Assembly (NCBI GenBank): GCA_965226285.1
Contig: CBDDCQ010000001.1
Coordinates: 119,916-183,915, forward strand
DNA: 64,000 nt
From: Ichthyobacteriaceae bacterium
Lineage (GTDB): Bacteria > Bacteroidota > Bacteroidia > Flavobacteriales > Ichthyobacteriaceae
Direction: 5' to 3'
Position numbers and translations under genes: made by a program. The notes under the pieces were generated by a model. That model did not search any database. It had not been told where the DNA came from and was given only the letters and a program-made list of their open reading frames with translations. Positions 21,726-43,085 of the stretch are shown in pieces; the first letter of the stretch is position 1; the number at the start of each line of letters is the position of its first letter.

Positions 21726-21907
21726 GTTGTAAATTGCTTTCAAAATCATATCTTTGCGGAGTATTCGCAACATAAGTAGTAGATTTTTTCAATGATAAGT
21801 TGTGAATTGCTTTCAAAATTTGTATCTTTTCAGAGTATTCGAAATCATTAATCATTATACCGTTGTAATTTGCTTTCAAAATTGTATCTTTGCAGAGTAT
21901 TCGCAAA
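21726..21907 (+). CRISPR. Degenerate 3-repeat CRISPR remnant
   Basis: Three decayed copies of the main repeat lie at 21726-21771, 21799-21845 and 21862-21907, in the same orientation. The spacers between them are 27 and 16 nt. Confidence 0.85.
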
Positions 21908-22011: not shown

Positions 22012-23265
22012 TTAATTTTCTATAATATCCAATAGGTCTTTAGCGGATATGCTATTGTCGTATTGCATTTTGTGAGGTTCTTTTGTTTGTATTTCTTTGG
22101 GTATATTTTTTAGTAGCTTATCAAACTGCTGTGAATTTAAATTCTCTACAAAAGAGGCAAATTGATCGGATTCAGGGTTGGGTTCTATAGTTTTTCTATA
22201 TATTTTGGCAATTGATTTGAGCATGTACAAATAAGGATTTAAACTGGTAGTAGTAGAAGATTTGTCGCTATCTATCCAAGATATGGCTACTTTTTCTATA
22301 CAATTCTTGCTAATTAATTCAGATTTTAATAGAAGTTCTATATCAAATGCAAATTTTGTTTCTATTATTTGTCCTTTTGTGAGTATTTCTGTTAAGATTT
22401 CTTTTTTAAATGCTTTGAAACCACATTGGGAGTCTATTATATAATTTAGGTTTGGGATTAGTTTTTTCCAGATGAATATAAACATTTTTCCCCTATCGTT
22501 TCGGTTAGCTTTCTTTATAAGCATAGATTTTTTTTCTCTACGAGAGCCTATAGCTACTAATTTATTTTTGTTTAGTATAGGATCTATCAATAATCCTATT
22601 TGACCTAAATGTGTTGAGGTATCAGCATCAGTATATATATATATTAGTATATGATTTTTATCTTTACTATTTGTAATTGCGTGCCATAAGCCATATATTA
22701 TGGATCCTCCTTTTTGGCTTTGTTTTGTGCTATGCAATCCTTTGAAAATTTCTAATTTGTTTTCTATAGCTTCTTGCAAGAAAATAACCTTAACCTTATC
22801 ATTCCAATTATTTTCTTTTATTATATCTTTAGCTATTTTACCACTATTTTCTGGGCAGCCATCATCTACCAATATTATCTCCCAACTAAAGTTAGGATTA
22901 TTTTTGAAAAGCCAGTTTATTTGATGCATTTTTTCATTTAAAAAATCTTCTCCATGTGGATGTTCTTGGCTTGTTTTTATCCTGTTATGTTCTTTGTATA
23001 AGGCAATTATTATAGGAATTTTTATGGGTTTGGGGTATTTGTTTACTATATGTTTTGATTTGGCAATTTTTATAGCAGTTAATATAAATACAAGGGAATG
23101 ATCTTTTTTATTTATCAAGTAATCTTCTATTTTTTCTATATTAGAGTAGCTTTTGTAATGATCCAATATTTTTGTTGCTATTAGAGTTATTAGGGTAGAA
23201 TGTTGTTTGCTTGTAAGGTCTATGTATTTAGGACATAGTTTTATTAGCGTATTTATATTTTCCAT
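22012..23265 (-). CDS. Family 2 glycosyltransferase, ALG5/dolichyl-phosphate glucosyltransferase-like
   Basis: Motifs ILVDDGCPENS, YTDADTST, AIGSRRE, IIDSQCGFKAF and FAFDIELL. The start is set at ATG 23265 (MENINTL), because the longer ORF to 23352 runs into the first CRISPR repeat. Confidence 0.8.
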   Translation of the reverse strand: MENINTLIKLCPKYIDLTSKQHSTLITLIATKILDHYKSYSNIEKIEDYLINKKDHSLVFILTAIKIAKSKHIVNKYPKPIKIPIIIALYKEHNRIKTSQEHPHGEDFLNEKMHQINWLFKNNPNFSWEIILVDDGCPENSGKIAKDIIKENNWNDKVKVIFLQEAIENKLEIFKGLHSTKQSQKGGSIIYGLWHAITNSKDKNHILIYIYTDADTSTHLGQIGLLIDPILNKNKLVAIGSRREKKSMLIKKANRNDRGKMFIFIWKKLIPNLNYIIDSQCGFKAFKKEILTEILTKGQIIETKFAFDIELLLKSELISKNCIEKVAISWIDSDKSSTTTSLNPYLYMLKSIAKIYRKTIEPNPESDQFASFVENLNSQQFDKLLKNIPKEIQTKEPHKMQYDNSISAKDLLDIIEN

Positions 23266-23335
23266 AAGTATTAAATATTTTTTTGATAAATTAATTATGG
23301 AGTATTGCAAATTTACAACAAAATAATTTAAATAA

Positions 23336-26300
23336 GTTGTAAATTGCTTCAAAATTTGTATCTTTGCGGAGTATTCGCAACGTTACTTTTGTGTTGTTCG
23401 GCTGAAGTTTAGTTGTAAATTGCTTCAAAATTTGTATCTTTGCGGAGTATTCGCAACGATGGCATAATGATAAAGTTTGCATCCCTGGTTGTAAATTGCT
23501 TCAAAATTTGTATCTTTGCGGAGTATTCGCAACAAATTCGGAACATTATTTATCATGATATGGTTGTAAATTGCTTCAAAATTTGTATCTTTGCGGAGTA
23601 TTCGCAACCAAAGGAGGGTAAAGGAGCTAAGGGTTTAAGTTGTAAATTGCTTCAAAATTTGTATCTTTGCGGAGTATTCGCAACCTGAAAATAATGACAT
23701 CTTAATTACATAGTTGTAAATTGCTTCAAAATTTGTATCTTTGCGGAGTATTCGCAACTTATTATCGGCATTGTATTTTATATTACCGGTTGTAAATTGC
23801 TTCAAAATTTGTATCTTTGCGGAGTATTCGCAACAGTTTTCTATTGTTTCTAAGAACGGGGCAGTTGTAAATTGCTTCAAAATTTGTATCTTTGCGGAGT
23901 ATTCGCAACCTATTTCTTTACCTCTAAAACCTGCCTTTAGTTGTAAATTGCTTCAAAATTTGTATCTTTGCGGAGTATTCGCAACATAGTAATTATACTT
24001 ATGTTTGCCAAATCAGTTGTAAATTGCTTCAAAATTTGTATCTTTGCGGAGTATTCGCAACTTATATTGAATGAATACTACTACTTGATAGTTGTAAATT
24101 GCTTCAAAATTTGTATCTTTGCGGAGTATTCGCAACTACTGAATATCCCTAATAAAATACTACTATGTTGTAAATTGCTTCAAAATTTGTATCTTTGCGG
24201 AGTATTCGCAACTCCGTATATGTGGTATGATTTCTTAGTGTAGTTGTAAATTGCTTCAAAATTTGTATCTTTGCGGAGTATTCGCAACTGCCTTTGTAAA
24301 GGGCAAAGCAAGTTGGGAGTTGTAAATTGCTTCAAAATTTGTATCTTTGCGGAGTATTCGCAACTGCCTTTGTAAAGGGCAAAGCAAGTTGGGAGTTGTA
24401 AATTGCTTCAAAATTTGTATCTTTGCGGAGTATTCGCAACTTTCAGTTAGGATTTGGAAAACTGCGAAAAGTTGTAAATTGCTTCAAAATTTGTATCTTT
24501 GCGGAGTATTCGCAACTAATACGAAAAAGGTAGTAACTTCTGCGGGTTGTAAATTGCTTCAAAATTTGTATCTTTGCGGAGTATTCGCAACAATTCGCAT
24601 GGTTGGGATGATGTCGTAATCGTTGTAAATTGCTTCAAAATTTGTATCTTTGCGGAGTATTCGCAACTTCGGTAAATTTATGTAAATAGTTATAGCAGTT
24701 GTAAATTGCTTCAAAATTTGTATCTTTGCGGAGTATTCGCAACCCAAGTCAAAAGCATATCAACTACGGGCTAGTTGTAAATTGCTTCAAAATTTGTATC
24801 TTTGCGGAGTATTCGCAACTGTAAATTGTTCAAACGTGCCATCTACATTGTTGTAAATTGCTTCAAAATTTGTATCTTTGCGGAGTATTCGCAACAAATT
24901 ATGGAAACATATAAAGATGCAAATGGTTGTAAATTGCTTCAAAATTTGTATCTTTGCGGAGTATTCGCAACAAGAAGGTTTTAGAGAATGAAATATCTGC
25001 GGTTGTAAATTGCTTCAAAATTTGTATCTTTGCGGAGTATTCGCAACTAACCAAACAGGAGATAGAAGAATTAACTAGTTGTAAATTGCTTCAAAATTTG
25101 TATCTTTGCGGAGTATTCGCAACAAGAAGTTAGGAAAACTACCTATGACGCATGTTGTAAATTGCTTCAAAATTTGTATCTTTGCGGAGTATTCGCAACG
25201 CAAGCAAGCAGGCAAGCAAGCAGGCAAGCGTTGTAAATTGCTTCAAAATTTGTATCTTTGCGGAGTATTCGCAACTAAAATACCTAATCAAAAAACACCT
25301 ATAGGTTGTAAATTGCTTCAAAATTTGTATCTTTGCGGAGTATTCGCAACGAAAGAAAGTAAGTAATTTGAGGAGAGGGGGTTGTAAATTGCTTCAAAAT
25401 TTGTATCTTTGCGGAGTATTCGCAACTTTTTAATAAAATATGAAAGCAACATTAATGTTGTAAATTGCTTCAAAATTTGTATCTTTGCGGAGTATTCGCA
25501 ACTTAATATTGTTTGCCTTCTACCTCCTGTAAGTTGTAAATTGCTTCAAAATTTGTATCTTTGCGGAGTATTCGCAACATATATTTGAGATAGTACATGC
25601 AACGGGGTGTTGTAAATTGCTTCAAAATTTGTATCTTTGCGGAGTATTCGCAACAAATATGAGCCACAGAAACGCCCCTTAAAGGTTGTAAATTGCTTCA
25701 AAATTTGTATCTTTGCGGAGTATTCGCAACCAGTCTTAATATTAACTCTTAATGTATCAGTAGTTGTAAATTGCTTCAAAATTTGTATCTTTGCGGAGTA
25801 TTCGCAACACACACCTTATTCTTACCTTCCAAGAAAGTGTTGTAAATTGCTTCAAAATTTGTATCTTTGCGGAGTATTCGCAAACAATGGTGATTTTAGG
25901 AGTGCTGAGAGTATAGTTGTAAATTGCTTCAAAATTTGTATCTTTGCGGAGTATTCGCAACCTGAGCACTCTTAAACTGCATATTATGCGTGTTGTAAAT
26001 TGCTTCAAAATTTGTATCTTTGCGGAGTATTCGCAACTACAGGAGTAGCAATTATAGTCTTATCATTGTTGTAAATTGCTTCAAAATTTGTATCTTTGCG
26101 GAGTATTCGCAACACTAGTCGTTAATATCTGTTACCGTGTATGGTTGTAAATTGCTTCAAAATTTGTATCTTTGCGGAGTATTCGCAACATCGTATGGAA
26201 AATCCTGTTTTAGCACTTAGCGTTGTAAATTGCTTCAAAATTTGTATCTTTGCGGAGTATTCGCAACTATTTTGATATTATTTCTTCTTGTGAAATGTTG

Positions 26301-29300
26301 TAAATTGCTTCAAAATTTGTATCTTTGCGGAGTATTCGCAACCTTCATTGATTAAATAATAAAATATCTAAAGTTGTAAATTGCTTCAAAATTTGTATCT
26401 TTGCGGAGTATTCGCAACAAATTACAATAATCCTGTTCAAAAACTACGTTGTAAATTGCTTCAAAATTTGTATCTTTGCGGAGTATTCGCAACTCTTTAT
26501 AATCTAAAGGTATAGGGGGCTCAGGTTGTAAATTGCTTCAAAATTTGTATCTTTGCGGAGTATTCGCAACTTTTAGAGAAAAACACAAATGATTATGGTA
26601 GTTGTAAATTGCTTCAAAATTTGTATCTTTGCGGAGTATTCGCAACTGAGTGTGCGCTTTGTTACGAGAGTTTAGAGTTGTAAATTGCTTCAAAATTTGT
26701 ATCTTTGCGGAGTATTCGCAACATTATTCATATTTAAATATTTTTTTAATTAGTTGTAAATTGCTTCAAAATTTGTATCTTTGCGGAGTATTCGCAACTG
26801 TACCCAAGTATTGCATCAAAAGAACGAGTTGTAAATTGCTTCAAAATTTGTATCTTTGCGGAGTATTCGCAACTACCATTTATAATTGGTGAAAGGTCAT
26901 TCAGTTGTAAATTGCTTCAAAATTTGTATCTTTGCGGAGTATTCGCAACAGTAAGACTACTGCTATCACCAACCTCACTGTTGTAAATTGCTTCAAAATT
27001 TGTATCTTTGCGGAGTATTCGCAACTTGCAGAAGGAATTTAATTTTATAAACGCAGTTGTAAATTGCTTCAAAATTTGTATCTTTGCGGAGTATTCGCAA
27101 CCTTTAAGCCAATTATGATATTTATGAGAAAGTTGTAAATTGCTTCAAAATTTGTATCTTTGCGGAGTATTCGCAACTTATTAATCATCATTTTATGTCA
27201 TCATAGGGTTGTAAATTGCTTCAAAATTTGTATCTTTGCGGAGTATTCGCAACAAAAACAACAGAGAGAAGGTGGTGTTGATTGTTGTAAATTGCTTCAA
27301 AATTTGTATCTTTGCGGAGTATTCGCAACTCACTATAATGAACAGTGACACCATATTTAGTTGTAAATTGCTTCAAAATTTGTATCTTTGCGGAGTATTC
27401 GCAACATATAAGAGGCGATTTAATGTTATCGTATAGTTGTAAATTGCTTCAAAATTTGTATCTTTGCGGAGTATTCGCAACAAACAGGGATATTTGGATA
27501 TATGGTTTAGGGTTGTAAATTGCTTCAAAATTTGTATCTTTGCGGAGTATTCGCAACTGATTTTTTAAAATAAAATGACAAATGTAGTTGTAAATTGCTT
27601 CAAAATTTGTATCTTTGCGGAGTATTCGCAACAAAAATTATATGAACTTATTTTTGAAATAAGTTGTAAATTGCTTCAAAATTTGTATCTTTGCGGAGTA
27701 TTCGCAACTTTATTGATAGAAGAATAATGTACACTTTAGTTGTAAATTGCTTCAAAATTTGTATCTTTGCGGAGTATTCGCAACACAATTTTAGATATGG
27801 TGATAGAATATTAGGTTGTAAATTGCTTCAAAATTTGTATCTTTGCGGAGTATTCGCAACTAAGAAGTCAACAAATACAAGTGATTAAGGTTGTAAATTG
27901 CTTCAAAATTTGTATCTTTGCGGAGTATTCGCAACAATAATAAAAGACAACACCAAAGATACAGGTTGTAAATTGCTTCAAAATTTGTATCTTTGCGGAG
28001 TATTCGCAACCACCATTTAATAGTTTAAATTCATCTCTTAGTTGTAAATTGCTTCAAAATTTGTATCTTTGCGGAGTATTCGCAACATTTAAAATTATAA
28101 TATTGATGTAATTTAGTTGTAAATTGCTTCAAAATTTGTATCTTTGCGGAGTATTCGCAACTTATTTTACATAAGACGGTGACGCAATGCCTATAGGTTG
28201 TAAATTGCTTCAAAATTTGTATCTTTGCGGAGTATTCGCAACAATATGTTATTTCAAAATGTGGTTATCAAAAATTAGGTTGTAAATTGCTTCAAAATTT
28301 GTATCTTTGCGGAGTATTCGCAACAGAGGCAATTACATCGTTCTTAGGGACTATTTTAGTTGTAAATTGCTTCAAAATTTGTATCTTTGCGGAGTATTCG
28401 CAACATATGATAGTTCATTAGTAACTGAATCCGCCTATTAGTTGTAAATTGCTTCAAAATTTGTATCTTTGCGGAGTATTCGCAACTAATATCTTAGCAA
28501 AGATAAGATACTTGTATTGAGGTTGTAAATTGCTTCAAAATTTGTATCTTTGCGGAGTATTCGCAACAAATAAGGCTCGTAATTATCCCTTGCCTACTGT
28601 TAGTTGTAAATTGCTTCAAAATTTGTATCTTTGCGGAGTATTCGCAACATGGAAGTGGCATCATCAGTGATTAATAAAACCATTGTTGTAAATTGCTTCA
28701 AAATTTGTATCTTTGCGGAGTATTCGCAACAGGGCTTTGGAGATATAATTTAGCATAGTACAGGGTTGTAAATTGCTTCAAAATTTGTATCTTTGCGGAG
28801 TATTCGCAACTATCCGTGTAGCTTTCTTTATAGAAGCATCTTAGAGTTGTAAATTGCTTCAAAATTTGTATCTTTGCGGAGTATTCGCAACAATAACTAT
28901 GCAACAACTAGAGGAGGTCTAGCCTTTGTTGTAAATTGCTTCAAAATTTGTATCTTTGCGGAGTATTCGCAACAACTCAAGGAAATACCCAATTTAGAAA
29001 CTATAGGTACTGTTGTAAATTGCTTCAAAATTTGTATCTTTGCGGAGTATTCGCAACGTTTGCTTCAAATGAATATTTAGAAGATATGTTGTAAATTGCT
29101 TCAAAATTTGTATCTTTGCGGAGTATTCGCAACAATGAGGAAAATAAGGGGCGCGAAAAGTGTGTTGTAAATTGCTTCAAAATTTGTATCTTTGCGGAGT
29201 ATTCGCAACATCATAAGAAATAAATACAGCAGTAGATGGTTGTAAATTGCTTCAAAATTTGTATCTTTGCGGAGTATTCGCAACCCGCCTCCTCAGCAGT

Positions 29301-31871
29301 AACCCCAACCTTTGGTTGTAAATTGCTTCAAAATTTGTATCTTTGCGGAGTATTCGCAACAAAAGTATAATCACGATAAAACAGGAGAAGGTTGTAAATT
29401 GCTTCAAAATTTGTATCTTTGCGGAGTATTCGCAACTATATAAAGCACTTGAAGTAAACGATGCAGTTGTAAATTGCTTCAAAATTTGTATCTTTGCGGA
29501 GTATTCGCAACAATGAGGAGAATAAGGGGGGCGAAAAGTGTGTTGTAAATTGCTTCAAAATTTGTATCTTTGCGGAGTATTCGCAACCATGGCAATGATT
29601 ATAACTCGTTCTTGTATGTTGTAAATTGCTTCAAAATTTGTATCTTTGCGGAGTATTCGCAACATTACTCTTCAATTCGTGTTTCTCATCTATGTTGTAA
29701 ATTGCTTCAAAATTTGTATCTTTGCGGAGTATTCGCAACACGGGATTATAAAAATATCTCGTAAAATGAGTTGTAAATTGCTTCAAAATTTGTATCTTTG
29801 CGGAGTATTCGCAACTCCTAACAGTATTAATATCAGGGAATTGTAGTTGTAAATTGCTTCAAAATTTGTATCTTTGCGGAGTATTCGCAACATACTGCCC
29901 AAATTAAAAATAGTGCGGTAAGTTGTAAATTGCTTCAAAATTTGTATCTTTGCGGAGTATTCGCAACAAAAATATGTATTTAATGATGAATACGGGGTTG
30001 TAAATTGCTTCAAAATTTGTATCTTTGCGGAGTATTCGCAACGAATACCGACCGTAAATAACTATTTCATAGTTGTAAATTGCTTCAAAATTTGTATCTT
30101 TGCGGAGTATTCGCAACTGCTTGATTACGATTACTGGTTTTCTCTAAGTTGTAAATTGCTTCAAAATTTGTATCTTTGCGGAGTATTCGCAACATTATAT
30201 GACATACCAGATAAGGTAACGTGTTGTAAATTGCTTCAAAATTTGTATCTTTGCGGAGTATTCGCAACATAATCGGGCAACTTTTGGGAAACCAGTGGAA
30301 GTTGTAAATTGCTTCAAAATTTGTATCTTTGCGGAGTATTCGCAACTACTTATTTTTAACAATGCAAGCTTTTTTATGGAGTTGTAAATTGCTTCAAAAT
30401 TTGTATCTTTGCGGAGTATTCGCAACTATTAGCGACAATTTGGCAAAATTGGTATGAGTTGTAAATTGCTTCAAAATTTGTATCTTTGCGGAGTATTCGC
30501 AACCTTCCTATAGATATATTCTTGAGTAACATGATGTTGTAAATTGCTTCAAAATTTGTATCTTTGCGGAGTATTCGCAACTTATATGTTAAATTTCAGG
30601 ACAAATATGAAGTTGTAAATTGCTTCAAAATTTGTATCTTTGCGGAGTATTCGCAACACGTTGAGTAAAATATATAAGTATGAGAAGTTGTAAATTGCTT
30701 CAAAATTTGTATCTTTGCGGAGTATTCGCAACTAAAGAGGACTGCAAATTAATTATAGGAAGTTGTAAATTGCTTCAAAATTTGTATCTTTGCGGAGTAT
30801 TCGCAACGAGCAGGAGCAGGAGCAGGAGCAGGAGGAGGTTGTAAATTGCTTCAAAATTTGTATCTTTGCGGAGTATTCGCAACAAGATGATTTTAAAATA
30901 GATAAACCAATAGGTTGTAAATTGCTTCAAAATTTGTATCTTTGCGGAGTATTCGCAACGAAGATACTATAATTACCATTTTGCTTGTTGAAGTTGTAAA
31001 TTGCTTCAAAATTTGTATCTTTGCGGAGTATTCGCAACTTGAATGAATTGAAGGATGGTCGTAAAGGGGTTGTAAATTGCTTCAAAATTTGTATCTTTGC
31101 GGAGTATTCGCAACAGATTGGATATTTAGGGTCCCCATTTTCAAGTTGTAAATTGCTTCAAAATTTGTATCTTTGCGGAGTATTCGCAACTAATGTTTTT
31201 TTTATTTACATGGGTCCATGGTTGTAAATTGCTTCAAAATTTGTATCTTTGCGGAGTATTCGCAACTGTACCTATTACTTTGATAAACTATTAATAGTTG
31301 TAAATTGCTTCAAAATTTGTATCTTTGCGGAGTATTCGCAACCATTATTATTAACGCTTTCAATAGTTTACAGTTGTAAATTGCTTCAAAATTTGTATCT
31401 TTGCGGAGTATTCGCAACTATTTAAGTTATAAGATGTTAATACTTTAGTTGTAAATTGCTTCAAAATTTGTATCTTTGCGGAGTATTCGCAACTTATCAT
31501 TTCTCGTCTTTGGATGTTATGAGTTGTAAATTGCTTCAAAATTTGTATCTTTGCGGAGTATTCGCAACTATATATCTTATATATAGGTACAGGGAGGGTT
31601 GTAAATTGCTTCAAAATTTGTATCTTTGCGGAGTATTCGCAACGAAGAAACCCCTAAACTACACCAATACTAGTTGTAAATTGCTTCAAAATTTGTATCT
31701 TTGCGGAGTATTCGCAACAAAGAGGGAAGTAGCAATCTTAACTGAAAGGGTTGTAAATTGCTTCAAAATTTGTATCTTTGCGGAGTATTCGCAACAAAAC
31801 TAAATCAACAGTAGTTTTACGGGAGGTTGTAAATTGCTTCAAAATTTGTATCTTTGCGGAGTATTCGCAAC
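23336..31871 (+). CRISPR. Type II-C CRISPR array, 112 repeats / 111 spacers
   Basis: The 46-nt repeat is GTTGTAAATTGCTTCAAAATTTGTATCTTTGCGGAGTATTCGCAAC. The hand count was checked arithmetically: 112 x 46 plus the summed spacers equals 8536 nt. Spacers are 28-38 nt with a mode of 30. The plus-strand sense is inferred from tracrRNA complementarity. Confidence 0.98.
23337..23366 (+). promoter_or_regulatory. Repeat-embedded promoter motif (example in repeat 1; present in every canonical repeat)
   Basis: Repeat positions 2-4 are TTG, followed by exactly 19 nt, then positions 24-31 TAtcTTTG. This matches the Bacteroidetes -33/-7 consensus. Confidence 0.45.
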
Positions 31872-31931
31872 AGATAGTGGTTTAAGTTTTTGATATTCAA
31901 TAGTTTAAAACTTGAATTACAATTATAGAAA

Positions 31932-31956
31932 ACAGCCTTTAAAGGCTGTTTTTTTA
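31932..31956. terminator. Hairpin terminator between the array and cas2
   Basis: ACAGCCTTT/AAAGGCTGT stem followed by a T7 run on the plus strand. A shorter T run follows on the minus strand, so it may act in both directions. Confidence 0.65.
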
Positions 31957-31970
31957 TTTAATTATTCCTT

Positions 31971-32327
<357 letters not shown>

Positions 32328-33215
32328 TTATATAAATTTTGGATATAGGATTTTTCTAGATACTCCTTTAAAGCATTCATACAGTGAATTTGTAGTTCTA
32401 CTAGAGGCTATCATCAGTGGACTCTGTTTATTTCCGATCATAACATCCATGGTAATAATTTGTAATAGATGTTTTTTATGTTCTATAGTAAGTTCTTCAT
32501 AATTTTGATTATCTACAAAATCACAAACCAATCTATCTACAAATGGACGGTAGGGTTCCATAATATCATCAGCTAAGCAATAGGCATTATATTTATTTTT
32601 ATGAAATATTCCCAATGTAGGAAGTAAACCACTACTCACTAAAGAACGAGCAATTAAAGCTCTAAGTATAGCATATCCATAGTTGAGTAAGCCATTGGGC
32701 ATTTCTTCATTTGGTCCTCTTATAAATTCCATTTTAAAGATTTGCTTCCAATAGTAAACAGCTGATCTGGCTTCTTGATTCTTAGGATCTCCACTGGTAA
32801 TTCTCTCTGCCCAATACAGCATATTGTCGTGAGGAATACCTCTTTGTTTTAGAAGTTCTGCTTGGTTTTTAATTTTTGCTACTACAGTTTGTTTCCATAA
32901 ATTTTTTTTAAGGGTTTTAGTAGCAGAGATTTGATATTTGAATCTTTCACTTTGTTCAGTATGCGCATCTAATGGCATAAGTAATCCAATAGGATGGTGA
33001 CTTGCGTCACAATTGATAAGGGCTACATTGTTTTGAGTGATTTTTTCTAATAGTTTATTGGTAATGGTAATTTGAGGATGTTCTAAAACAATAAAACCAA
33101 TATCTTCTATGGGGACTTGTTTTTTGACTCCATCATTGGGATAGTTTACTACTAATTGCTCATTTTGGGTACTCAAGTAAGCAGGGTTACCAAAAAATAA
33201 AGTCTTTTTTACCAT
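32328..33215 (-). CDS. cas1: CRISPR-associated endonuclease Cas1 (type II)
   Basis: 295 aa with typical type II Cas1 segments: LNYGYAILRA, LPTLGIFHKNKYNAYCLADDIMEPYRP. Confidence 0.96.
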   Translation of the reverse strand: MVKKTLFFGNPAYLSTQNEQLVVNYPNDGVKKQVPIEDIGFIVLEHPQITITNKLLEKITQNNVALINCDASHHPIGLLMPLDAHTEQSERFKYQISATKTLKKNLWKQTVVAKIKNQAELLKQRGIPHDNMLYWAERITSGDPKNQEARSAVYYWKQIFKMEFIRGPNEEMPNGLLNYGYAILRALIARSLVSSGLLPTLGIFHKNKYNAYCLADDIMEPYRPFVDRLVCDFVDNQNYEELTIEHKKHLLQIITMDVMIGNKQSPLMIASSRTTNSLYECFKGVSRKILYPKFI

Positions 33216-33276: not shown

Positions 33277-36200
33277 TCAAACTTTTGATGACTCAGAGTA
33301 TTTCACATTTTTGTGATGGTTGTTTACTTCTACAATTTTTCCTAATCGGTTTATCCGTACCTTTATTGCTTTAGTTAAAGGATGTTTATCTTTGTTTTTT
33401 ATATTAGGCAGACTCTTTACTACATAATAACAAATTCCTTTTAAATCTTCATTAGTATGATGGTTTTTTCCACTAACTACTCTTTCTCTATCTACATTAG
33501 TTTCTAAGTGGCTTCTAAAATAGTAATCCTTAGAACTAATTTTTTGCACTCTAAATAAATGTTTGCTGATTTCTTGAAAATTATTAGGATCCGTAAGGTC
33601 AATCTCTTGGGGATTAAATTCATCGTTACCAAATATAAAATAGTCATTCTGAGCTATACTAAATAAAAACTTCCAACCCTTATCTCGATTTTTTATTTTA
33701 TCAATAATAGGTAAACCTTGTTTTTTTCTTTCTACAGTTTCCCAAAAACTTACTACTTCCTCCTGCCAATTTCCTTTTTCATCTTCATAAATTGCTATAT
33801 GTTGATTATTACGTGTTTGTACAAAGTCAGTCTGAATGATTTCTCCTTTGGTATTTTTCCTTTTGATAGGCTTGGCAGATGTAATTCCTGTTATAGAAAC
33901 TTTTTTAATTTGAATATTTTTTTCTTTGTTTAGGTAAATAGGGTTTTCTTCTAAGTTAGAGAGTGCTTTTTTCTTATCTCCATTGTACTGTTCAATTCTA
34001 TTTTGGAGGATTTTTTGGATGCCTTTATCTATTATTTTTTCAATCTTAAGGTCTGGTTTAACTTCTTTTCTAATGGTATAGATTTCTTTAAAAGTTACTA
34101 ATTTTACTTTTTCAGGAAGTGTCTTACCATTACAATCAAGGACAGGATTTTTAGTAAAGCTATTTTTACCCGAAAAGGCTTTTTTAAAGTTATTATTAAA
34201 TTCTTGTAATCTATTTATAAGGGCATTTTTATGCTTAAAGTTGGCTACAGAATTTATTTTATGTAAATCGAGTGTAGCATCTATTTTTTTTTGTTTAGTT
34301 TGATATCGTTTTATTTTTCTATACAAAGTATCTTTGTGTAAGGGACCTCTTGGAGTCAATACTACCTGTTTCTTAAACTTATTTTTATCTTTAATTTTAA
34401 TTTTATTAATATTTTTGGTTGCTGTTTTATTTTTAGCTTTAAATGATATTAACATATTTTCTAAAACTGATTTAGCTTCTCCTCTAAAATTTGGGAAGGG
34501 CTTCTTAAATCTTAGTTTATTTTTATGGTCTCGGTAAAGTTCTTTTTGTTCTATACCATAAATGCTACTAGTTTTGTTACTTTTGGCTTTCAAGTTATTT
34601 AAGTATTGTATATGGCTAGGTTTTGTAAATGCTACAATGAGTGCGTCCATAGCATGGTGTCTGTGGTCGTCTCGTTTTGCCCAGCCTTTTATTTTGTAAA
34701 TAGTATCTCCTTTTTCTCCTTTTTCAGTATTGGTAAGTCCTATCCTTTCATACTTGTCAAAATTAATTTCTTTCATAATATCTATCAATCCCCAGTCTTC
34801 TCTTAATCTATCAGTAACTTTTCCAGTAGTTGTATGCACTTTTTTACAAATATTACCTAATATTTGAATGGTTTTTTTAGCTATATACTGTGAATCTCTT
34901 AAGTCTCGTTCTATAAAATCTTCAGGTATTTCAGAAGATTTCATTCGTAATTTACTTCGTTTGGTTTTACTTATCAACTCTTTTTTATAAAATTCGTCAA
35001 CCCTATCTTTATACTGTTCAAACTCTGTTTCATTGTATTTATCTTTGAGAAAATCATAGGCAGTTTGGTCACTTTTATGCTGGTTTAATTTTCTTTCACA
35101 GAGTATTTTGTTAGAAAAAGAATCATCAAACAATTTTGCTGTAGGTATAATATGGTCAATATTGTATTTATTGGTAAATAGAGCGGATACTTTTATGGGT
35201 TTTCCTGTATAAATGGATATTCCTTTAGTCTCTTCCCAAAGTTTATAGCGAATAATATCATTTCGTGTAACCTTTTCAATCTTATATTCACTTTGTAATT
35301 TTTTTCTTATTTCTTCATTTTTTTTAGTAGCATCTCTAATATGAGCGATCATCTTTTTCCTATCTTCTTTACTCTGTTTAAGTTCTCTCGCAAGTTCTAC
35401 TCTTATTTCATCGGGCTTTCCGTATGTTTTTATAATTTCATTTACAGTGTTGATAGTTTGATTTAAGATTTTTTCTATTACAGGGGTTCTAAGCGCATTC
35501 TTGGGTAGTAAATCTAAAGTGTCTTTTATAGGTTTACTTTGTATTTGTTTTTTATTGAGCACGTGAGAATGATTGTATCCTGCTAATTGACATGCCTTAT
35601 CGTATGGGTATCCCTCTTTTAGATGAGGCAAAATTTTTCTAATAGCTCTAGCACTGAGATTCCCATAATCAGAATCTAACCTTATTTGAGTGAGTATTTT
35701 ACCATGAGATTTTTTAAATCCAAATTTTTCGTGAAGTTTTTGGATTAACTTTTCATTGTTTTCAATAGAATAAATGAGATGCCATAATTGAAAATAAGAT
35801 TGTTTATCAAAATCATTACCCCTTAGGTTACTATCAAAGTTTAAAACATCAGTATTGATATCTAAACTTTTAAATATTTTTGTTATAGTGTTTCTAATCT
35901 CATCAGCACTCATAGAGAAATCAAACTCATAGCCTTCTACATTTGAAATAGCTTGAAAAGCCTGATATAATAAATAATTTGTATGGTTTCCTTCTAAGTC
36001 TTCAAAGTTCAATTTCCAATTTCTCAGGTTGTATCCTAAAATTTTGAATATCTCTCTTTTAGAAAGACGGAATTTTAAATTGGCATGTTCAAAGAGAACT
36101 TGTTTAAGTTCCAAATCTAATTTTAGTTCTGTTTTATCTTTAACATTAGTAAAGGTGAGATCATTAATATTTTGCCAAATTTTAAATTCTTGAAATAGAG

Positions 36201-37566
36201 GAGAAGATTTGGAACATGCTTTATGGTGCTTTTCAAATTGACAGTCTGAAATAAGATGCTTACATGATTTTAAAGGTCTTTGATAAAAAATGATAGTATC
36301 TTTAATTTCTTTTTCTAATTTAGAATCTAGTTCATGATAGTGTTTCTTCTGTTCTTGCCAAATGGCATCGAATTCATTGATATAATCTTTTCGGTAGAAT
36401 ATTTGATTTCTTAGATTGGTATGTGGATTGCGTTCTATTTGTTCATATAAGTATTGCCCTATAGTTTTACCCTTAAAATGCAATTTTTTACTTCTATCAC
36501 TGATGATGCCTAAGTATTTACTCGCTTGATTGATTTGGCTATTAATTTCTATTAAAATGTAAGCTACTTGTGTAATGTCAAGTTGTTTGTTTAAAGCATC
36601 TGTACGGTAACTGTACTGTTGCAATTGTTTTTCATCACTTTTTCCTTTGGGTTCTGCAATATATTTTGTAGGTAAAATAATGTTTAGGCTGTTCTTAAAG
36701 AATTTCTCTATTTCATTTAATCTTACTTGTTGATTCTCAAAATAAGTTTCTTTGGCTTTGGCGGTTAAAATTTTGGGGTATTTATCTTTTAATTCCTCCC
36801 ATTTTTGAAGAGCGTTATTTTTAAATTCTTGTACAAAAATAGACCTAAAAGCACTCGCAGTTTGTGTCCTATTTAATCCGTATAAGTCTTTTTTGAGTTT
36901 ATCGGTCAATATATTGGGATAAAACTCTTGTTGAAAATCGAATATAATATCAAATTCCCTTTGCAGATCAGATTTATAAAATACAGGAACTTCATAAGTT
37001 TTCTTTTCTTTTTTTCGTTCCTGTATCTTTTGTAATACATATTGTCCTATGGTTATATTTTGATCTTTTAATATTTTAGCAATTTCAATATTATCTATAG
37101 CTTGTCCTAAATCTTCGGAATTATCTTTCTTTCTATTACTTTTATATCCTCGTTTCTTGTTAATTGAAAGTAGTACTCTTACAAAATCTACCTTAGATAA
37201 TTGCTCATTGGGGGCTTTAGCACGAAGTTTTAGTAATTGATGAGTAGTTTTTTTTCCTTCTTCTCTAAGTATGTGATCGTTATTTATAAAACCTATCTTT
37301 TTAAAGGTATTTATAATACGTTGCCTTCTTAATTTGTAACGGAAATTATTTCTTCTTGAACTTCTTTTTAAAGTTCTTTCAGCATTGATGGTAATGCTAT
37401 TGCCTTTTTCAAAGTTATTCTTTTCATCAATAGTAAGAGACACTACTCTTACACCACCATCAATAATTTTAGAATTTTCTCTATTTTCATGCTCTTCTAC
37501 AACTGACCATCCAATAGTAGTTGTTCCCAAATCTAATCCGAGTATTTTTTTATGCACACTATCCAT
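33277..37566 (-). CDS. cas9: Type II-C Cas9 (cas9-1, intact)
   Basis: 1429 aa. RuvC-I ILGLDLGTTTIGWSVV, RuvC-II IRVELARE, HNH YNIDHIIP...NKILCERKLNQHKSDQ, RuvC-III HHAMDALIVAF. No csn2 or cas4 is present in the locus. Confidence 0.97.
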   Translation of the reverse strand: MDSVHKKILGLDLGTTTIGWSVVEEHENRENSKIIDGGVRVVSLTIDEKNNFEKGNSITINAERTLKRSSRRNNFRYKLRRQRIINTFKKIGFINNDHILREEGKKTTHQLLKLRAKAPNEQLSKVDFVRVLLSINKKRGYKSNRKKDNSEDLGQAIDNIEIAKILKDQNITIGQYVLQKIQERKKEKKTYEVPVFYKSDLQREFDIIFDFQQEFYPNILTDKLKKDLYGLNRTQTASAFRSIFVQEFKNNALQKWEELKDKYPKILTAKAKETYFENQQVRLNEIEKFFKNSLNIILPTKYIAEPKGKSDEKQLQQYSYRTDALNKQLDITQVAYILIEINSQINQASKYLGIISDRSKKLHFKGKTIGQYLYEQIERNPHTNLRNQIFYRKDYINEFDAIWQEQKKHYHELDSKLEKEIKDTIIFYQRPLKSCKHLISDCQFEKHHKACSKSSPLFQEFKIWQNINDLTFTNVKDKTELKLDLELKQVLFEHANLKFRLSKREIFKILGYNLRNWKLNFEDLEGNHTNYLLYQAFQAISNVEGYEFDFSMSADEIRNTITKIFKSLDINTDVLNFDSNLRGNDFDKQSYFQLWHLIYSIENNEKLIQKLHEKFGFKKSHGKILTQIRLDSDYGNLSARAIRKILPHLKEGYPYDKACQLAGYNHSHVLNKKQIQSKPIKDTLDLLPKNALRTPVIEKILNQTINTVNEIIKTYGKPDEIRVELARELKQSKEDRKKMIAHIRDATKKNEEIRKKLQSEYKIEKVTRNDIIRYKLWEETKGISIYTGKPIKVSALFTNKYNIDHIIPTAKLFDDSFSNKILCERKLNQHKSDQTAYDFLKDKYNETEFEQYKDRVDEFYKKELISKTKRSKLRMKSSEIPEDFIERDLRDSQYIAKKTIQILGNICKKVHTTTGKVTDRLREDWGLIDIMKEINFDKYERIGLTNTEKGEKGDTIYKIKGWAKRDDHRHHAMDALIVAFTKPSHIQYLNNLKAKSNKTSSIYGIEQKELYRDHKNKLRFKKPFPNFRGEAKSVLENMLISFKAKNKTATKNINKIKIKDKNKFKKQVVLTPRGPLHKDTLYRKIKRYQTKQKKIDATLDLHKINSVANFKHKNALINRLQEFNNNFKKAFSGKNSFTKNPVLDCNGKTLPEKVKLVTFKEIYTIRKEVKPDLKIEKIIDKGIQKILQNRIEQYNGDKKKALSNLEENPIYLNKEKNIQIKKVSITGITSAKPIKRKNTKGEIIQTDFVQTRNNQHIAIYEDEKGNWQEEVVSFWETVERKKQGLPIIDKIKNRDKGWKFLFSIAQNDYFIFGNDEFNPQEIDLTDPNNFQEISKHLFRVQKISSKDYYFRSHLETNVDRERVVSGKNHHTNEDLKGICYYVVKSLPNIKNKDKHPLTKAIKVRINRLGKIVEVNNHHKNVKYSESSKV

Positions 37567-37579
37567 ATTATAGCAAAAT

Positions 37580-37666
37580 AATAAAAAAGCGACAAATGAA
37601 ATTTGCCGCTTTCAAATGTTTTCACAACGGAATAATCCTTATTGTGAATTGCTTCAAAATTTCAAC
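37580..37666 (-). ncRNA. tracrRNA copy A
   Basis: The minus-strand RNA is UUGAAAUUUUGAAGCAAUUCACAAUAAGGAUUAUUCCGUUGUG...GCGGCAAAUUUCAUUUGUCGCUUUUUU. Its 22-nt anti-repeat is complementary to repeat positions 1-22 (one mismatch, one GU pair). It has a nexus-like hairpin and a terminator hairpin plus U6. A -7 box TAtaTTTG lies at 37670-37677. Confidence 0.85.
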
Positions 37667-37716
37667 TTGCAAATATAGATTTATTTTTTCTTTTTTCGTG
37701 TTTTTTTTTCTTTTTT

Positions 37717-37822
37717 CAATAATTTCAGAATTTTCTCTATTTTCATGCTCTTCTACAACTGACCATCCAATAGTAGTTGTTCCCAAATCCAATCCGAGTA
37801 TTTTTTTATGCACACTATCCAT
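37717..37822 (-). pseudogene. Orphan cas9 N-terminal fragment (first ~35 codons)
   Basis: It encodes MDSVHKKILGLDLGTTTIGWSVVEEHENRENS, identical to the cas9-1 N-terminus, then runs into upstream-flank sequence. Confidence 0.9.
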
Positions 37823-37839
37823 ATTATAATAGCAAAATA

Positions 37840-37917
37840 ATAAAAAAGCGACAAATTTGCCGCTTTAAATGTTTTCACAACGGAATAATCCTTATTGTGA
37901 ATTGCTTCAAAATTTCA
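37840..37917 (-). ncRNA. tracrRNA copy B
   Basis: Same anti-repeat and nexus as copy A. The terminator loop is shortened (GCGGCAAAUUUGUCGC plus a U run). A -7 box lies at 37922-37929. Confidence 0.8.
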
Positions 37918-38196
37918 ATTGCAAATATAGATTTATTTTTTCTTTTTTCGTGTTTTTTGTTTCTTTTTTTAAGCCAATGTATCGTTTCTGTGCGGTGTTG
38001 AGCTTGGCAACATTGCAAATACGTTAATCCGTTTTGCCAGCCTCATTGCAAAAAAAGCATGTAATTCAATGTTTACGGGCGATCATAGTGTTTTTAGAAT
38101 ATTTTTTTTAGTATCTCTCATGCAAGTTCTATTAAAAATGAAACAGTTGATAGGGTAATTTTAGGAACTATCCCAATACTCATTTTATATCTCATA

Positions 38197-38231: not shown

Positions 38232-41200
38232 TCATACTTATGCACATTTTTGTGAGGGTTGTTTACTTTTACAATTTTTCCTAATTGGTTTATCCGTACC
38301 TTTATTGCTTTATTTAAAAGATGTTTATCTTTGTTTTTTGTATTAGGCAGGCTCTGAATTCTATACTTACAAATTCTTTCTAAATCTCTATTTACAGTAG
38401 TTTCTAAATGGTTTCTAAACCTGTAATCGTTAGAACTAATACTTTGCACTCTAAATAAATGTCTGCTGATTTCTTGAAAATTATTAGGATCCGTAAAGTC
38501 AATATCTTGAGGATTAAATTCATCGCTACCAAATATAAAATAGTCATTAATGAGCCATACTAAATAAAAACTTCCAATCCTTATCCCGATTTTTTATTTT
38601 ATCAATAATAGGTAACCCTTGTTTTTTTCTTTCTACAGCTTCCCAAAAACTTACTACGTCTTCTTGCCAATTTCCTTTTTCATCTTCATAAATTGCTATA
38701 TGGTGATTATTACCTGTTTGTACAAAGTCAGTATGAGTAATTTCTCCTTTGGTATTTTTCCTTTCGATAGACTCGGCAGATGTAATTCCTGTTATAGAAA
38801 CTCTTTTAATTTGAATATTTTTTTCTTCGTTTAGGTAAATAGGGTTTTCTTCTAAGTTAGAGAGTGCTTTTTTCTTATCTCCATTGTATTGTTTAATTCT
38901 ATTTTGGAGGATTTTTTGGATGCCCTCATCTACTATTTTTTCAATATTAAGTTTTGGGTTAACTTCTTTTCTAATGGTATAGATTTCTTTAGAAGTTACT
39001 AATTTTTCAGGAAGTTTCTTACCATCATCATCGAGAATACGATTTTTAGTAAGGTTCTTTTTAGAAAAGGCTTTTTTAGGTTCATTATTAAATTCTTGTA
39101 ATCTCTTTTTAAGGGCATTTTTATGCTTAACGTTGGCTATAGAATTTATTTTATCTAAATTGAGTTTATCATCTATTTTTAGTTTTTTAAAAATTACTAA
39201 TTTTTCAGGAAGTTTCTTACCATTACCATCGAGGATAGGATTTTTAGTAAGGTTATCTTCAGAAAAGGCTTTTTTAGGTTCATTATTAAATTCTTGTAAT
39301 CTCTTTTTAAGGGCATTTTTATGTTTATCGTTGGTTATAGAATTTATTTTATCTAAATTGAGTTTATCATCTATTTTTAGTTTTTTAGTTTCATATTGTT
39401 TTATTTTTCCATATAAAGTTTCTTCGTGTAAGGGACCTCTTGGAGTCAATACTACTTGTTTCTTAAACGTATTTTTACCAAACTCATCTTTACATTTAAT
39501 TTTATTAGTATTTCTGGTTACTGTTTTATTTTTAGCTTTAAATGATATTAAAATTTTTTCTAAAAATAATTTAGCTTCTCTTCTAAAATTTGGGATGGGC
39601 TTCTTAAATATTAGTTTCTTTTTTTTAGTGTCCCAGTAAAGTTCTTTTTGTTGTATACCATAGATGATACTATTTTTGTCACTTTTGGCATTCAAATTAT
39701 TTAAGTATTGTATATAACTATGTTTTGTAAATGCTACAGTGAGTGCGTCCATAGCATGGTGTCTGTGGTCGTTTCGTTTTGTCCAGTCTTTTATTTTGTA
39801 AAGAGTATCTCCATGTTTTCCTTTTTCAGTATAAGTAAGTCCTAACCTTTCATACTTGTCAAAATTAATTTCTCTCATAATATCTTCCAATCCCCAGTCT
39901 TTTCTTAATCTATTAGTAACTTTTCCAGTAGTTGTATGCACTATTTTACAAATATCACCTAATATTTGAGTAGTTTTTTTAGCTATATATTGTGAATTTC
40001 TTAAGTCTCGTTCTAAAAAATCTTTAGGTATTTCAGAAGATTCCCTTAGCAAGTTCTCTTTTTTGGTTTCACTTATCAACTCTTTTTTATAAAATTCTTC
40101 AACCCTATTTAAATACTCTTTAAACTCTGTTTCATTGTATTTATCTTTGAGAAAATCATGGGCAGTTTGGTTACTTTTATCTTGGTTTAATTTGCTTTCA
40201 CAGAGTGTTTTGTTAGAAAAAGAATCATCAAACAATTTTGACTTAGGTATAATATGTTCAATATGGTATTTATTGGTAAATAGATCGCATCGTTTTATGA
40301 GTTTTCCTGTATAAATGGATATTCCTTTAGTCTCTTCCCAAAGTTTATCACGAATCTCATCATTTCTTGTAACCCTTTCAATCTTATATTCACTTTGTAA
40401 TTTTTTTCTTATTTCTTCGTTTTTGTTAGTAGCATCTTTAATATGCTGGGTCGTTTTTTCCCTTTCTTCTTTACTCTGTTTAAGTTCTCTCGCAAGTTCT
40501 ACTCTTATTTCATCGGGCTTTCCGTATGTTTTTATAATTTCGTTTACAGTGTTGATAGTTTGATTTAAGATTTTTTCTACTACGGGGTTTCTAAGCGCAT
40601 TCTTGCGTAGTAAATCTAAAGTGTCTTTTGTAGGTTTATTTTCTATTTGTTTTTTATTGAGCGCGTGAGAGTGATTGTATCCTGCTAATTCACATGCCTT
40701 ACTGTATGGGTGTCCCTCTTTTAGATGAGGTAAAATTTTTCTAATAGCTCTAGCACTAAGCTTTCCATAATCAGACTCTAACCTTATTATTTGAGCGAGT
40801 ATTTTACCATGAGGTTTTTTAAATCCAAATTTTTCGTGAAGTTTTTGGACTAACGTTTCATCGTTTTCAACAGAATAAATGAGATGCCATAATTGAAAAT
40901 AAGGTTGTTTATCAAAATCATTCCCCGCTAAGTTACTATCAAAGTTTAAAACATCAGTATTAATATCTAAACTTTTAAATACAGTGTTTATTTCTGTTCT
41001 AATCTCAGCAGCACGCCTTTTAGAAAAATCCAATTCCCATTCTCCTTTTTTTAAAATATAAAAATCAAACTCATGGTCTTCTTCTTTTAAAATAGCTTGA
41101 AAAGCATGACATAATGAATGATTTGTACGGTTTCCTTCTAAGCCTTTATCTTTATCTTTAAGTTTCAATTCCCAATCTTTTGGGTTGTATCCTAAAATTT

Positions 41201-42704
41201 TGAATATCTCTTTTTTAGAAAGACGGGATTTTAAATTAGCATGTTCAAAGAGATCTTGTTTACGTTCCAAATCTAATTTTAGTTCGCTTTTATCTTTAAC
41301 ATTAGTAAAGGTAAGATCATTAATATTTTGCCAAATTCTAAATTCTTGAAATAGAGGAGAAGATTTGGGACATGCTTTATGGTGCTTTTCAAATTCACAA
41401 GATGAAATAAGATGCTTACAAGATTTTAAAGGTCTTTGATAAAAAATGATAGTATCTTTAATTTCTTTTTCTAATTTAGAATCTAGTTCATGATAGTGTT
41501 TCTTCTGTTCTTGCCAAATGGCATCGAATTCCTTGATATAATCTTTTCGGTAGAATACTTGATTTCTTAGATTGGTATGTGGATTGCGTTCTATTTGTTC
41601 ATATAAGTATTGCCCTACAGTTTTATCCTCAAGATGCAATTTTTTACTTCTATCACTGATGACACCTAAGTGTTTACTAACTTTATTGATTTGGTTATTA
41701 ATTTCTATTAAAATGTAAGCTACTTGTGTAATGTCAAGTTGTCTGTTTAAAGCATCTGCACGGTAAGTGTACTGTTGCAATTGTTTTTCATCACTTTTTC
41801 CTTTGGGTTCTGCAATATATTTTGTAGGTAAAACAACGTTTAGCTTGCTGTTAAAGAATTTTTCTATTTCCTCTAGTTTTATTTTTGGATTCTCAAAATA
41901 AGTTTCTTTGGCTTTGGCGGTTAAAATTTGGGGGTATTTATCTTCTAATTCCTCCCATTTTTGAAGAGCGTTATTTTTAAATTCTTTTACAAAAATAGAC
42001 TTAAAAACGTTCGCAGTTTTTTTCTTATTTAATCCGTCTAATTCTTTTTTGAGTTTATCGGTCAATATATCGGGATAAAACTCTTGTTGAAAATCGAATA
42101 TACTATCAAATTCCTTTTGCAAATCAGATTTATAAAATGCAGGAACTTCGTATATTTTCTTTTCTTTTTTTCGTTCCTGTATCTTTTGTAATACATATTG
42201 TCCTACGGTTATATTTTGATCGTTTAATATTTTAGCAATTTCAATACCATCAACAGCTTGTCCTAAATCTTCAGAACTCTTTTCTTTTCTATTACTTTTA
42301 TATCCTCGTTTCTTGTTAATTAAAAGTAGTACTCTTACAAAATCTACCTTAGATAATTGCTCATTGGGGGCTTTAGCACGAAGTTTTAGTAATTGATGCT
42401 TAATATTCTCTACTTGTATGTAGTCGTTATTTATAAAACCTATCTTTTTAAAGGTATTTATAATACGTTGCCTTCTTAATTTGTAACGGAAATTACTTCT
42501 TCTTGCACCTCTTTTTAAAGTTCTGTCAGCATTGGTGGTAATGCTCTTGCCTTTTTCAACGTTATCCTTTTCATCAGTAGTAAGAGGCACCACTCTCACA
42601 CCACAATCAATAATTTTAGAATTTTCTTCATTTTCATCTTCTTGCACCAAAGCCCAACCGATACTATTTGTTCCCAAATCTAATCCAAGTATTTTTTTAT
42701 GCAT
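38228..42704 (-). pseudogene. cas9: Second cas9 paralog (cas9-2), frame-shifted near the 3' end
   Basis: The 1385-aa ORF (38547-42704) is collinear with cas9-1. The remaining 106 codons of the C-terminal domain continue in another frame (38228-38548). RuvC and HNH motifs are present (ILGLDLGTNSIGWALV, YHIEHIIP, HHAMDALTVAF). Confidence 0.85.
38996..39391. repeat. In-frame 198-bp tandem duplication inside cas9-2
   Basis: 38996-39193 and 39194-39391 are near-identical. They encode two copies of KLKIDDKLNLDKINSI.N.KHKNALKKRLQEFNNEPKKAFS..NLTKN.ILD..GKKLPEKLV. cas9-1 has one copy. Confidence 0.9.
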
Positions 42705-42731: not shown

Positions 42732-42825
42732 ATAAAAAAGCGACAAACGCCATTTGCCTGACATTTGCCGCTTTAAAATGTTTTCACAACGGAATAATCC
42801 TTATTGTGAATTGCTTCAAAATATT
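42732..42825 (-). ncRNA. tracrRNA copy C (upstream of cas9-2)
   Basis: The anti-repeat ATTGTGAATTGCTTCAAAAT (plus sense) is identical over 20 nt and diverges after that. The terminator stem carries an insertion (GCGGCAAAUGUCAGGCAAAUGGCGUUUGUCGC plus U6). A -7 box lies at 42830-42837. Confidence 0.75.
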
Positions 42826-43085
42826 AATGCAAATATAGATTTATTTTTTCTTTTTTCGTGTTTTTTTATTTTTTTTTTAGCCAGTTGTATCATTTCTGTG
42901 CAGTGTTGAGCTTGGCAACATTGCAAAAAAAGCCTGTAAGTCAATGTTTACGGGCGATCATAGTATTTTTAGAATATTTTATCTTTCGTATCTCTCATGC
43001 AAGTTCTATTTAAAAATGAAACAGTTGAGAGGGTAATTTTAGAAACTATGCTCATGTATTCGTTTTATATTTCAGAAGTATTATT

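Follow-up and report, generated by a model that had tools for sequence, protein, structure and literature searches.

A putative Bacteroidota primary-sigma promoter within each repeat of a long-repeat type II-C CRISPR array

We analyzed a CRISPR array in a 64,000-nucleotide stretch of DNA from an Ichthyobacteriaceae bacterium (contig CBDDCQ010000001.1, positions 119,916 to 183,915; referred to below, in its entirety, as the window) and found that every repeat of the array carries both elements of the promoter consensus recognized by the primary sigma factor of the Bacteroidota, on the strand from which the CRISPR RNAs (crRNAs) would be made. We regard it as likely, on the evidence of motif, orientation and conservation laid out here, that the array repeats are active promoters, each of which would read into the spacer that follows it and onward toward the cas genes.

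The array occupies 23336..31871, with the plus strand as the crRNA sense, and an exact scan resolved it into 112 repeats of 46 nucleotides (nt) and 111 spacers that are mostly 29-30 nt long. The same scan showed that 111 of the 112 repeats are one identical 46-mer, GTTGTAAATTGCTTCAAAATTTGTATCTTTGCGGAGTATTCGCAAC, the sole variant being the repeat at 25839-25884, whose final base is A. On the plus strand each repeat reads G-TTG-TAAATTGCTTCAAAATTTG-TATCTTTG-CGGAGTATTCGCAAC, which puts TTG at repeat positions 2-4 and TATCTTTG at 24-31, separated by 19 nt, and leaves 15 nt behind the box; an earlier note on this DNA had described each repeat as gTTG-N19-TAtcTTTG, and this description is exact in all 112. 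In the first repeat the -33 TTG lies at 23337..23339 (plus strand) and the -7 box TATCTTTG at 23359..23366 (plus strand), and both recur in all repeats. In the last, cas2-proximal repeat the full TTG-N19-TATCTTTG spans 31827..31856 (plus strand), from which the predicted transcript would run into the leader.

The consensus for the Bacteroidota primary sigma factor consists of TTTG or TTG at -33 and TAnnTTTG at -7 (Bayley et al. 2000 and Chen et al. 2007, as given in PMC7366714 and PMC2483708). In the window repeat both elements are exact and their separation of 19 nt falls within the range of about 17-23 nt; unlike the ordinary Bacteroidota promoters found upstream of genes, the window copy is reiterated 112 times within a CRISPR array. 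Chen et al. in 2007 reportedly found 19 nt to be the optimal spacing of the two elements. The pattern TTG-N19-TAnnTTTG had 117 matches in the window versus 2.5 expected (112 in the main array, 2 in a degenerate mini-array and 3 elsewhere in the window). Because the repeats are copies, the 112 array matches amount to one event, and the chance of the pattern in a single 46-mer on one strand is ~3e-4. Outside the array, TAnnTTTG has a density of ~1.2 per kilobase (kb) per strand. It was found on the sense strand within 150 nt upstream of 16 of the 28 crudely called window genes, versus 5 in the antisense control, and a -7 box also precedes all three genes in the window for the trans-activating crRNA (tracrRNA), which clearly points to a host that uses the TAnnTTTG promoter grammar.

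For comparison we gathered related loci around relatives of Cas9 and Cas1 and extracted their repeats by script. A Cas9-anchored scan of genome contigs yielded four loci only, two of them with arrays, and the usable set was supplied by a Cas1-profile scan of metagenome contigs. The repeats were oriented by their GTTGTGA start, in agreement with the tracrRNA evidence, and the comparison set came to 44 distinct aligned repeats of 46-49 nt, the window repeat included. An exact TAnnTTTG was present on the crRNA strand in 20 of these 44, at start positions 23-27, and on the opposite strand in 0 of the 44; all 20 exact-box repeats have a TTG 18-22 nt upstream of the box, mostly at 19, and a tail of 14-17 nt behind it. 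When the repeats were shuffled, the box appeared in 2.4 on average (maximum 9 in 2000 shuffles) and the full pattern in 0.18 (maximum 3). A one-mismatch box was seen at the same place in a further 16 repeats, as in TATTTTTA, TATCTTAG and TAAATTAG. Across the 36 box-bearing repeats, T1, A2, T5 and T6 of the box are nearly invariant, and box positions 3-4 (the nn, where TC predominates) and 7-8 are more variable, a variation profile that broadly equals the information profile of the promoter consensus. Mean pairwise identity among the exact-box repeats is 0.96 for the box, 0.40 for the next 10 nt and 0.60 for the preceding 5 nt; in these alignments the -7 box thus forms an island of conservation beside a variable tail.

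We considered pairing with the tracrRNA as a reason for this conservation and rejected it: the anti-repeats of the tracrRNAs pair only with repeat positions 2 to ~24-28, where they stop, and each tracrRNA has its own -7 box 0-7 nt upstream of the anti-repeat. The repeat box lies outside the duplex, and therefore duplex formation cannot explain its conservation. In one related locus (L074, 1823-2056) we observed a 36-nt version of the repeat, GTTGTGATTCGTTTTCAAATTGTATTTTAGTACAGC, with a box-like element at the same place and a tail of only 7 nt, which places the additional ~10 nt of the long repeats in the stretch from the box to the spacer. The idea that long repeats exist to fit a promoter is weakened, since the promoter would take up positions 2-31 only and this 36-nt variant keeps the box. 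We also compared the box with host promoter grammar in the related loci for co-variation, and the sense and antisense counts, which come from crude gene calls on short metagenome contigs, were similar in all groups.

The direction in which the array is read follows from the tracrRNA genes. tracrRNA copy 1 (37578..37677, minus strand) comprises, in minus-strand order, the -7 box TATATTTG (37677-37670), 7 nt, the anti-repeat (37662-37641), the scaffold TAAGGATTATTCCGTTGTGAAAACATT and a 13-base-pair (bp) hairpin with T-run as terminator (37613-37585). The plus strand at 37641-37662 reads ATTGTGAATTGCTTCAAAATTT and is repeat-like, and therefore the anti-repeat is on the minus strand. The scaffold after the anti-repeat is conserved in nine related loci, which identifies a genuine minus-strand tracrRNA. 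A search of Rfam returned no family matching the window tracrRNAs. Copy 2 (37838..37929, minus strand; -7 box 37929-37922, terminator 37866-37845) lies within a tandem duplication (37500-37700 versus 37740-37940) that also copies the first cas9 codons. Copy 3 (42737..42837, minus strand; -7 box 42837-42830, anti-repeat 42824-42803, terminator 42774-42737) precedes the second of two cas9 genes, copy b, and has a longer terminator stem. Since the anti-repeat is complementary to the plus-strand repeat, pairing with its positions 1-22, the crRNAs must be plus-strand and converge on cas2-cas1-cas9. The earlier note had argued the same from the tracrRNA orientation, and the -7 box, anti-repeat, scaffold and terminators all lie on the minus strand as it requires; the related loci in which a tracrRNA could be identified all share this arrangement, with a crRNA sense that is antisense to their cas operon.

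Two further observations concern the tracrRNAs of the window. Copy 1 points the same way as cas9 and sits immediately upstream, its terminator ending ~10 nt before the cas9 ATG, and the first cas9 gene, copy a, may be transcribed by read-through of this terminator; in the related loci examined (including L001 9850-9990 and L007 ~1000-1190) the tracrRNA is instead divergent from cas9. In addition, repeat positions 12-16 of the main array read GCTTCAAAA, and the mini-array and nearly all relatives have GCTTTCAAA, whose additional T gives a 1-nt bulge opposite the anti-repeat of the tracrRNA. With this T deleted from all 112 main-array repeats the duplex has no bulge, and an A.C mismatch is present at repeat position 6.

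An intrinsic terminator, with a 12-bp stem followed by a T-run and a strong predicted fold, is located at 31927..31954 (plus strand), 56 nt past the last repeat. The earlier note had placed a plus-strand hairpin and T7 terminator at 31932-31956; a hairpin and T-run do follow the last repeat, at the slightly different coordinates given here, and the hairpin is bidirectional, serving the minus-strand cas operon as a weaker terminator behind cas2. As it follows cas2 too, the hairpin insulates two convergent units. Between the last repeat and this terminator the leader holds a strong 14-bp inverted repeat or hairpin (31877..31920, plus strand; z = -5.3 for 31872-31970), and a palindrome has been described in the equivalent Riemerella leader (PMC5006608). 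Among 43 related loci, 22 have a terminator-like hairpin beyond the cas2-proximal repeat, at a distance of 55-80 nt; such hairpins occur in 15 of 18 loci with an exact box versus 7 of 25 others (Fisher p = 5e-4, uncorrected for relatedness).

Degenerate repeats sit at the cas-distal, left side of the array and comprise the mini-array at 21726-21907 and a single variant repeat. This left-side degeneracy fits acquisition at the cas2-proximal, last repeat, where new spacers are added in II-C systems (PMC12080349) and in Flavobacterium columnare (PMC8092290). The cas-distal terminal repeat is often truncated in the related loci as well, and in five of them (L036, L020, L045, L024 and L011) it consists of the 3' part (box and tail) only and lacks the 5' part that pairs with the tracrRNA. 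Such 3'-only repeats fit a repeat retained as promoter for the first spacer, or equally a simple truncation from outside.

Taking the motif, its orientation, its conservation and the terminator as observed, we infer promoter activity, a start position and processing steps that would work as follows. Each 46-nt repeat would be a complete primary-sigma promoter, with the -33 TTG at positions 2-4, a 19-nt spacer and the -7 TATCTTTG at positions 24-31. From the box geometry and the parallel with the tracrRNA promoters, the transcription start is predicted to fall around repeat positions 35-38, at a distance of 9-12 nt from the spacer; the earlier note had put the start 8-10 nt before the 3' end of the repeat, an estimate that is revised here to about 9-12 nt. 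The transcript would consist of the last 9-12 nt of the repeat, the adjacent spacer and the following repeats, all on the plus strand, would head to the cas2-proximal end at which II-C systems add spacers, and would end at the hairpin and T-run of 31927-31954. The minus-strand tracrRNA would pair with positions 1-22 of the repeat after each spacer and thereby set the 3' part of the crRNA, presumably via cleavage by RNase III, and at the 5' end a short repeat-derived tag would be either kept or trimmed.

After comparison with the 44 related repeats, the proposal of the earlier note that the repeats act as promoters is the best-supported reading, the box being conserved, strand-specific, correctly spaced and outside the tracrRNA duplex. 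Several points weigh against it. Promoter activity at the locus is deduced from sequence alone. The exact box is missing from 24 of the 44 related repeats, those of the closest Cas1 relatives (TATTTTTA or TATTTTAG) among them, so that a perfect box is not essential to the repeat family. Because the related repeats share ancestry, fewer independent events lie behind the counts than these suggest. The nn of the box is TC in most exact-box repeats, beyond what the promoter consensus needs, and conservation of the leading GTTGT is a general trait of type II repeats, so that the -33 TTG may exist for other reasons. Lastly, the predicted start would give guides with ~10 extra nt at the 5' end in addition to the 30-nt spacer, and Fp2Cas9, a related Cas9, performs best with spacers of 24-26 nt (PMC12609912); set against this optimum, such an extension would call for trimming or tolerance.

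The guide length also bears on the suggestion, made in the earlier note by likeness to Neisseria, that the crRNAs are independent of processing. This does not follow, as the predicted start leaves a repeat-derived 5' extension and the full 30-nt spacer, and the Neisseria feature of a mature crRNA 5' end defined by the start site is probably not shared by the window system. A broader view, which we offer tentatively and hold to be doubtful, is that in Bacteroidota II-C systems every one of the unusually long 46-48-nt repeats is a transcription unit complete in itself, with a full -33/-7 promoter, a start site and a constant initial segment of 9-12 nt, from which crRNAs would be born with a 5' tag independent of spacer sequence. 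The tag would then be functional or removed by a trimming step. No characterized Cas9 system is known to have a repeat-derived 5' tag of this kind.

Three other explanations of the motif were weighed. According to the first, the TATCTTTG island is a DNA-level signal unrelated to transcription, such as an internal anchor for the Cas1-Cas2 integrase as it duplicates the long repeat, and the match to a promoter is incidental or secondary. The prevalence of TC at nn, more than a promoter needs, agrees with this, as do the persistence of CTTTG in repeats that have lost the TA and a repeat length held at 46-49 nt with a tail free in sequence, the pattern expected of a ruler-type constraint. Nonetheless we consider it unlikely: variation in the wider set matches the promoter consensus, with T1, A2, T5 and T6 near-invariant, the TTG-box distance is kept at 18-22 nt though the intervening sequence and its length change, and the host clearly uses the box motif as a promoter. 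The integrase is not known to depend on the central part of type II repeats, which also counts against an anchor there.

The second explanation holds that a single promoter upstream of the first repeat, or read-through, produces one long precursor that is cut by RNase III and tracrRNA as in type II-A, with the motifs in the repeats silent. This is the default model for most CRISPR arrays, and for the 47-nt repeats of Riemerella no promoters were reported, one being predicted instead in the leader on the cas2 side (PMC5006608). The Riemerella predictions came from a general neural-network tool (BDGP), not from the Bacteroidetes -33/-7 consensus (PMC5006608), and a cas2-side promoter would yield RNA of the wrong strand, judging by tracrRNA complementarity and by the orientation of Bacteroides fragilis metatranscriptomes (PMC4911918). 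In the window the 70 nt upstream of the first repeat contain no plus-strand TAnnTTTG, the region being that of the promoter for a divergently oriented glycosyltransferase gene, and a single distal start would leave the newest spacers 8.5 kb downstream, so that internal promoters make sense. Moreover, in Flavobacterium psychrophilum an array of the same family, with 46-bp repeats, is split by an IS256 insertion sequence, and RNA sequencing showed both halves to be transcribed, on either side of the insertion (PMC10309648). A single precursor with silent repeats is, in our judgment, quite improbable. The third explanation, a chance match in an AT-rich repeat, could draw on the 33% GC of the window and on the background of TAnnTTTG outside the array, but is scarcely credible given how rare the full pattern should be in a 46-mer and given that the motif is conserved, strand- and position-specific, in relatives with diverged flanks whose repeats are not near-identical copies.

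The array forms part of a type II-C CRISPR-Cas9 locus. Its host is a low-GC member of the Bacteroidota, as Cas1 relatives and promoter usage indicate, and the Cas1 is Flavobacterium-like. On the minus strand, past the terminator, lie cas2 (31971..32324; PF09827, 1.9e-18), cas1 (32328..33215; PF01867, 5e-32) and cas9 copy a (33277..37566; 1429 amino acids, Pfam RuvC_III and HNH_4). The presence of cas9, cas1 and cas2 without csn2 or cas4, neither of which was found among the open reading frames of at least 80 amino acids in 18000-40000 (the tested neighbors being a glycosidase and a glycosyltransferase), therefore assigns the locus to type II-C; the same list holds no open reading frame of at least 80 amino acids between cas2 and the array. 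The window Cas1 is 64-68% identical to the listed homologs, Flavobacterium-named ones among them, and the 46-nt repeat, a start of the GTTGTGA/GTTGTAA class and Cas proteins of Bacteroidota lineage are those of long-repeat Bacteroidetes II-C systems. A cas9 paralog, copy b (38547..42704, minus strand; 1385 amino acids), lies in tandem upstream of copy a and is 76-80% identical to it, with a shorter C-terminus; it carries an internal duplication of ~60 amino acids and stops ~120 amino acids early. The cas1-cas2 genes and the array come after copy a only, not after copy b.

The degenerate mini-array at 21726..21907 (plus strand) has three repeats in the same orientation as the main array, lies at its old end and keeps an exact TTG-N19-TATCTTTG in two of the three. 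Between it and the main array stands a gene for a family 2 glycosyltransferase, which is on the opposite strand (22012-23265), an arrangement that looks like an insertion or rearrangement within an older array. The flank immediately 5' of the first repeat (23300-23335) reads GGAGTATTGCAA followed by ATTTACAAC, a piece resembling the 3' part of the repeat joined to an inverted copy of the repeat 5' end. Its minus strand carries a perfect -7 box, TAAATTTG, ~50 nt upstream of the glycosyltransferase ATG, and as plus-strand RNA it can pair with the first repeat (z = -2.6), which resembles a hairpin strategy against extraneous crRNAs (PMC12080349).

We also noticed several features of the spacers. 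Eleven successive spacers at 28162-29011 are 34-38 nt long, the remaining ones being 28-34 nt and nearly all 29-30 nt, which suggests an episode with another spacer-length setting or a recombined block. One spacer is exactly duplicated in adjoining units (24289-24318 and 24365-24394), and two others (29134-29163 and 29512-29541) differ at two positions, as if one target had been sampled from two variants. A purine lies directly 5' of the repeat in 86 of the 111 spacers (last base: A 55, G 31, T 21, C 4), which could be an acquisition preference or a repeat boundary misplaced by one base. As an independent test of the crRNA strand, protospacers were sought by blastn with 7.9 kb of array sequence among 50,697 phage records; this returned only two 26-nt matches at chance level (E = 2), and exact scans of IMG/VR with two spacers gave no match, hence no protospacer-adjacent motif (PAM) was derived.

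If the repeats are promoters, the newest spacers of the 8.5-kb array would be expressed as well as the oldest and no leader promoter would be needed, an expression logic that is accepted for II-C systems. What our analysis would add is a precise promoter model for long-repeat Bacteroidota Cas9 systems (TTG at 2-4, box at 24-31, start near 36). The model would correct the vaguer proposal of a TTG 33-35 bp before the spacer, fix the crRNA orientation and hence the PAM side for these loci, and predict a repeat-derived 5' extension on primary crRNAs. It is relevant to the annotation of CRISPR arrays in gut and aquatic Bacteroidota and to guide design for their Cas9 enzymes. The advance is incremental and introduces no new principle, as repeat promoters are an existing concept, and one already put forward for the family of repeats seen here. 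In the literature searched, a coherent pairing of -33 and -7 elements, with its start position and family-wide conservation, appears not to have been set out before, and searches that combined the -7 consensus with CRISPR repeats turned up no study more specific than those discussed here.

With the II-C systems of Neisseria meningitidis and Campylobacter jejuni (Zhang et al. 2013; Dugar et al. 2013, 2018; summarized in PMC12080349) the window shares a cas gene set of cas9-cas1-cas2 only, an array that follows cas2 and whose transcription heads for the cas genes and the end of acquisition, a promoter element in each repeat, and a tracrRNA that pairs with the 5' part of the repeat after the spacer. 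Zhang et al. in 2013 reportedly found that these systems use a sigma-70 extended -10 element, placed where the 36-nt repeat has its 3' end, with the start inside the spacer and equal to the mature 5' end. The window differs from both species in its two-part -33/-7 Bacteroidota promoter, its 46-nt repeat and its predicted start within the repeat, 9-12 nt before the spacer. II-C arrays in general are described as carrying repeat promoters and as being transcribed in the direction of the acquisition end (PMC12080349). Among long-repeat systems, the Bacteroidetes II-C subcluster with repeats of up to 48 nt (Chylinski et al. 2013, PMC3737331), to which the 47-bp repeats of B. fragilis belong (PMC5704556, PMC4911918), matches the window in repeat length, Cas9 lineage and layout, and the B. 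fragilis 47-nt array is transcribed face to face with the cas genes in eight metatranscriptomes (PMC4911918). The papers on this subcluster describe no repeat promoter, and the window also differs in its co-directional tracrRNA and lost bulge nucleotide.

The arrays of F. columnare and F. psychrophilum share with the window the phylum, the promoter grammar and a proposed per-repeat transcription toward the variable end, and those of F. psychrophilum also the 46-bp repeat length. For the 36-bp II-C repeats of F. columnare, Hoikkala et al. 2021 proposed a repeat-encoded promoter with a TTG 33 bp before the spacer, supported by eight reads (PMC8092290). A 2023 study of F. psychrophilum proposed a repeat promoter for 46-bp repeats and named only a TTG, 35 bp before the spacer, while recognizing TAnnTTTG upstream of cas9 (PMC10309648). 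In both Flavobacterium proposals the start is assumed to be at the spacer and no -7 box is identified in the repeat; a TTG 33-35 bp before the spacer corresponds to window repeat positions 9-11. The window repeat differs in that its TTG at positions 2-4 and its perfect TAnnTTTG stand at canonical spacing and would together form a coherent promoter, with the start predicted inside the repeat.

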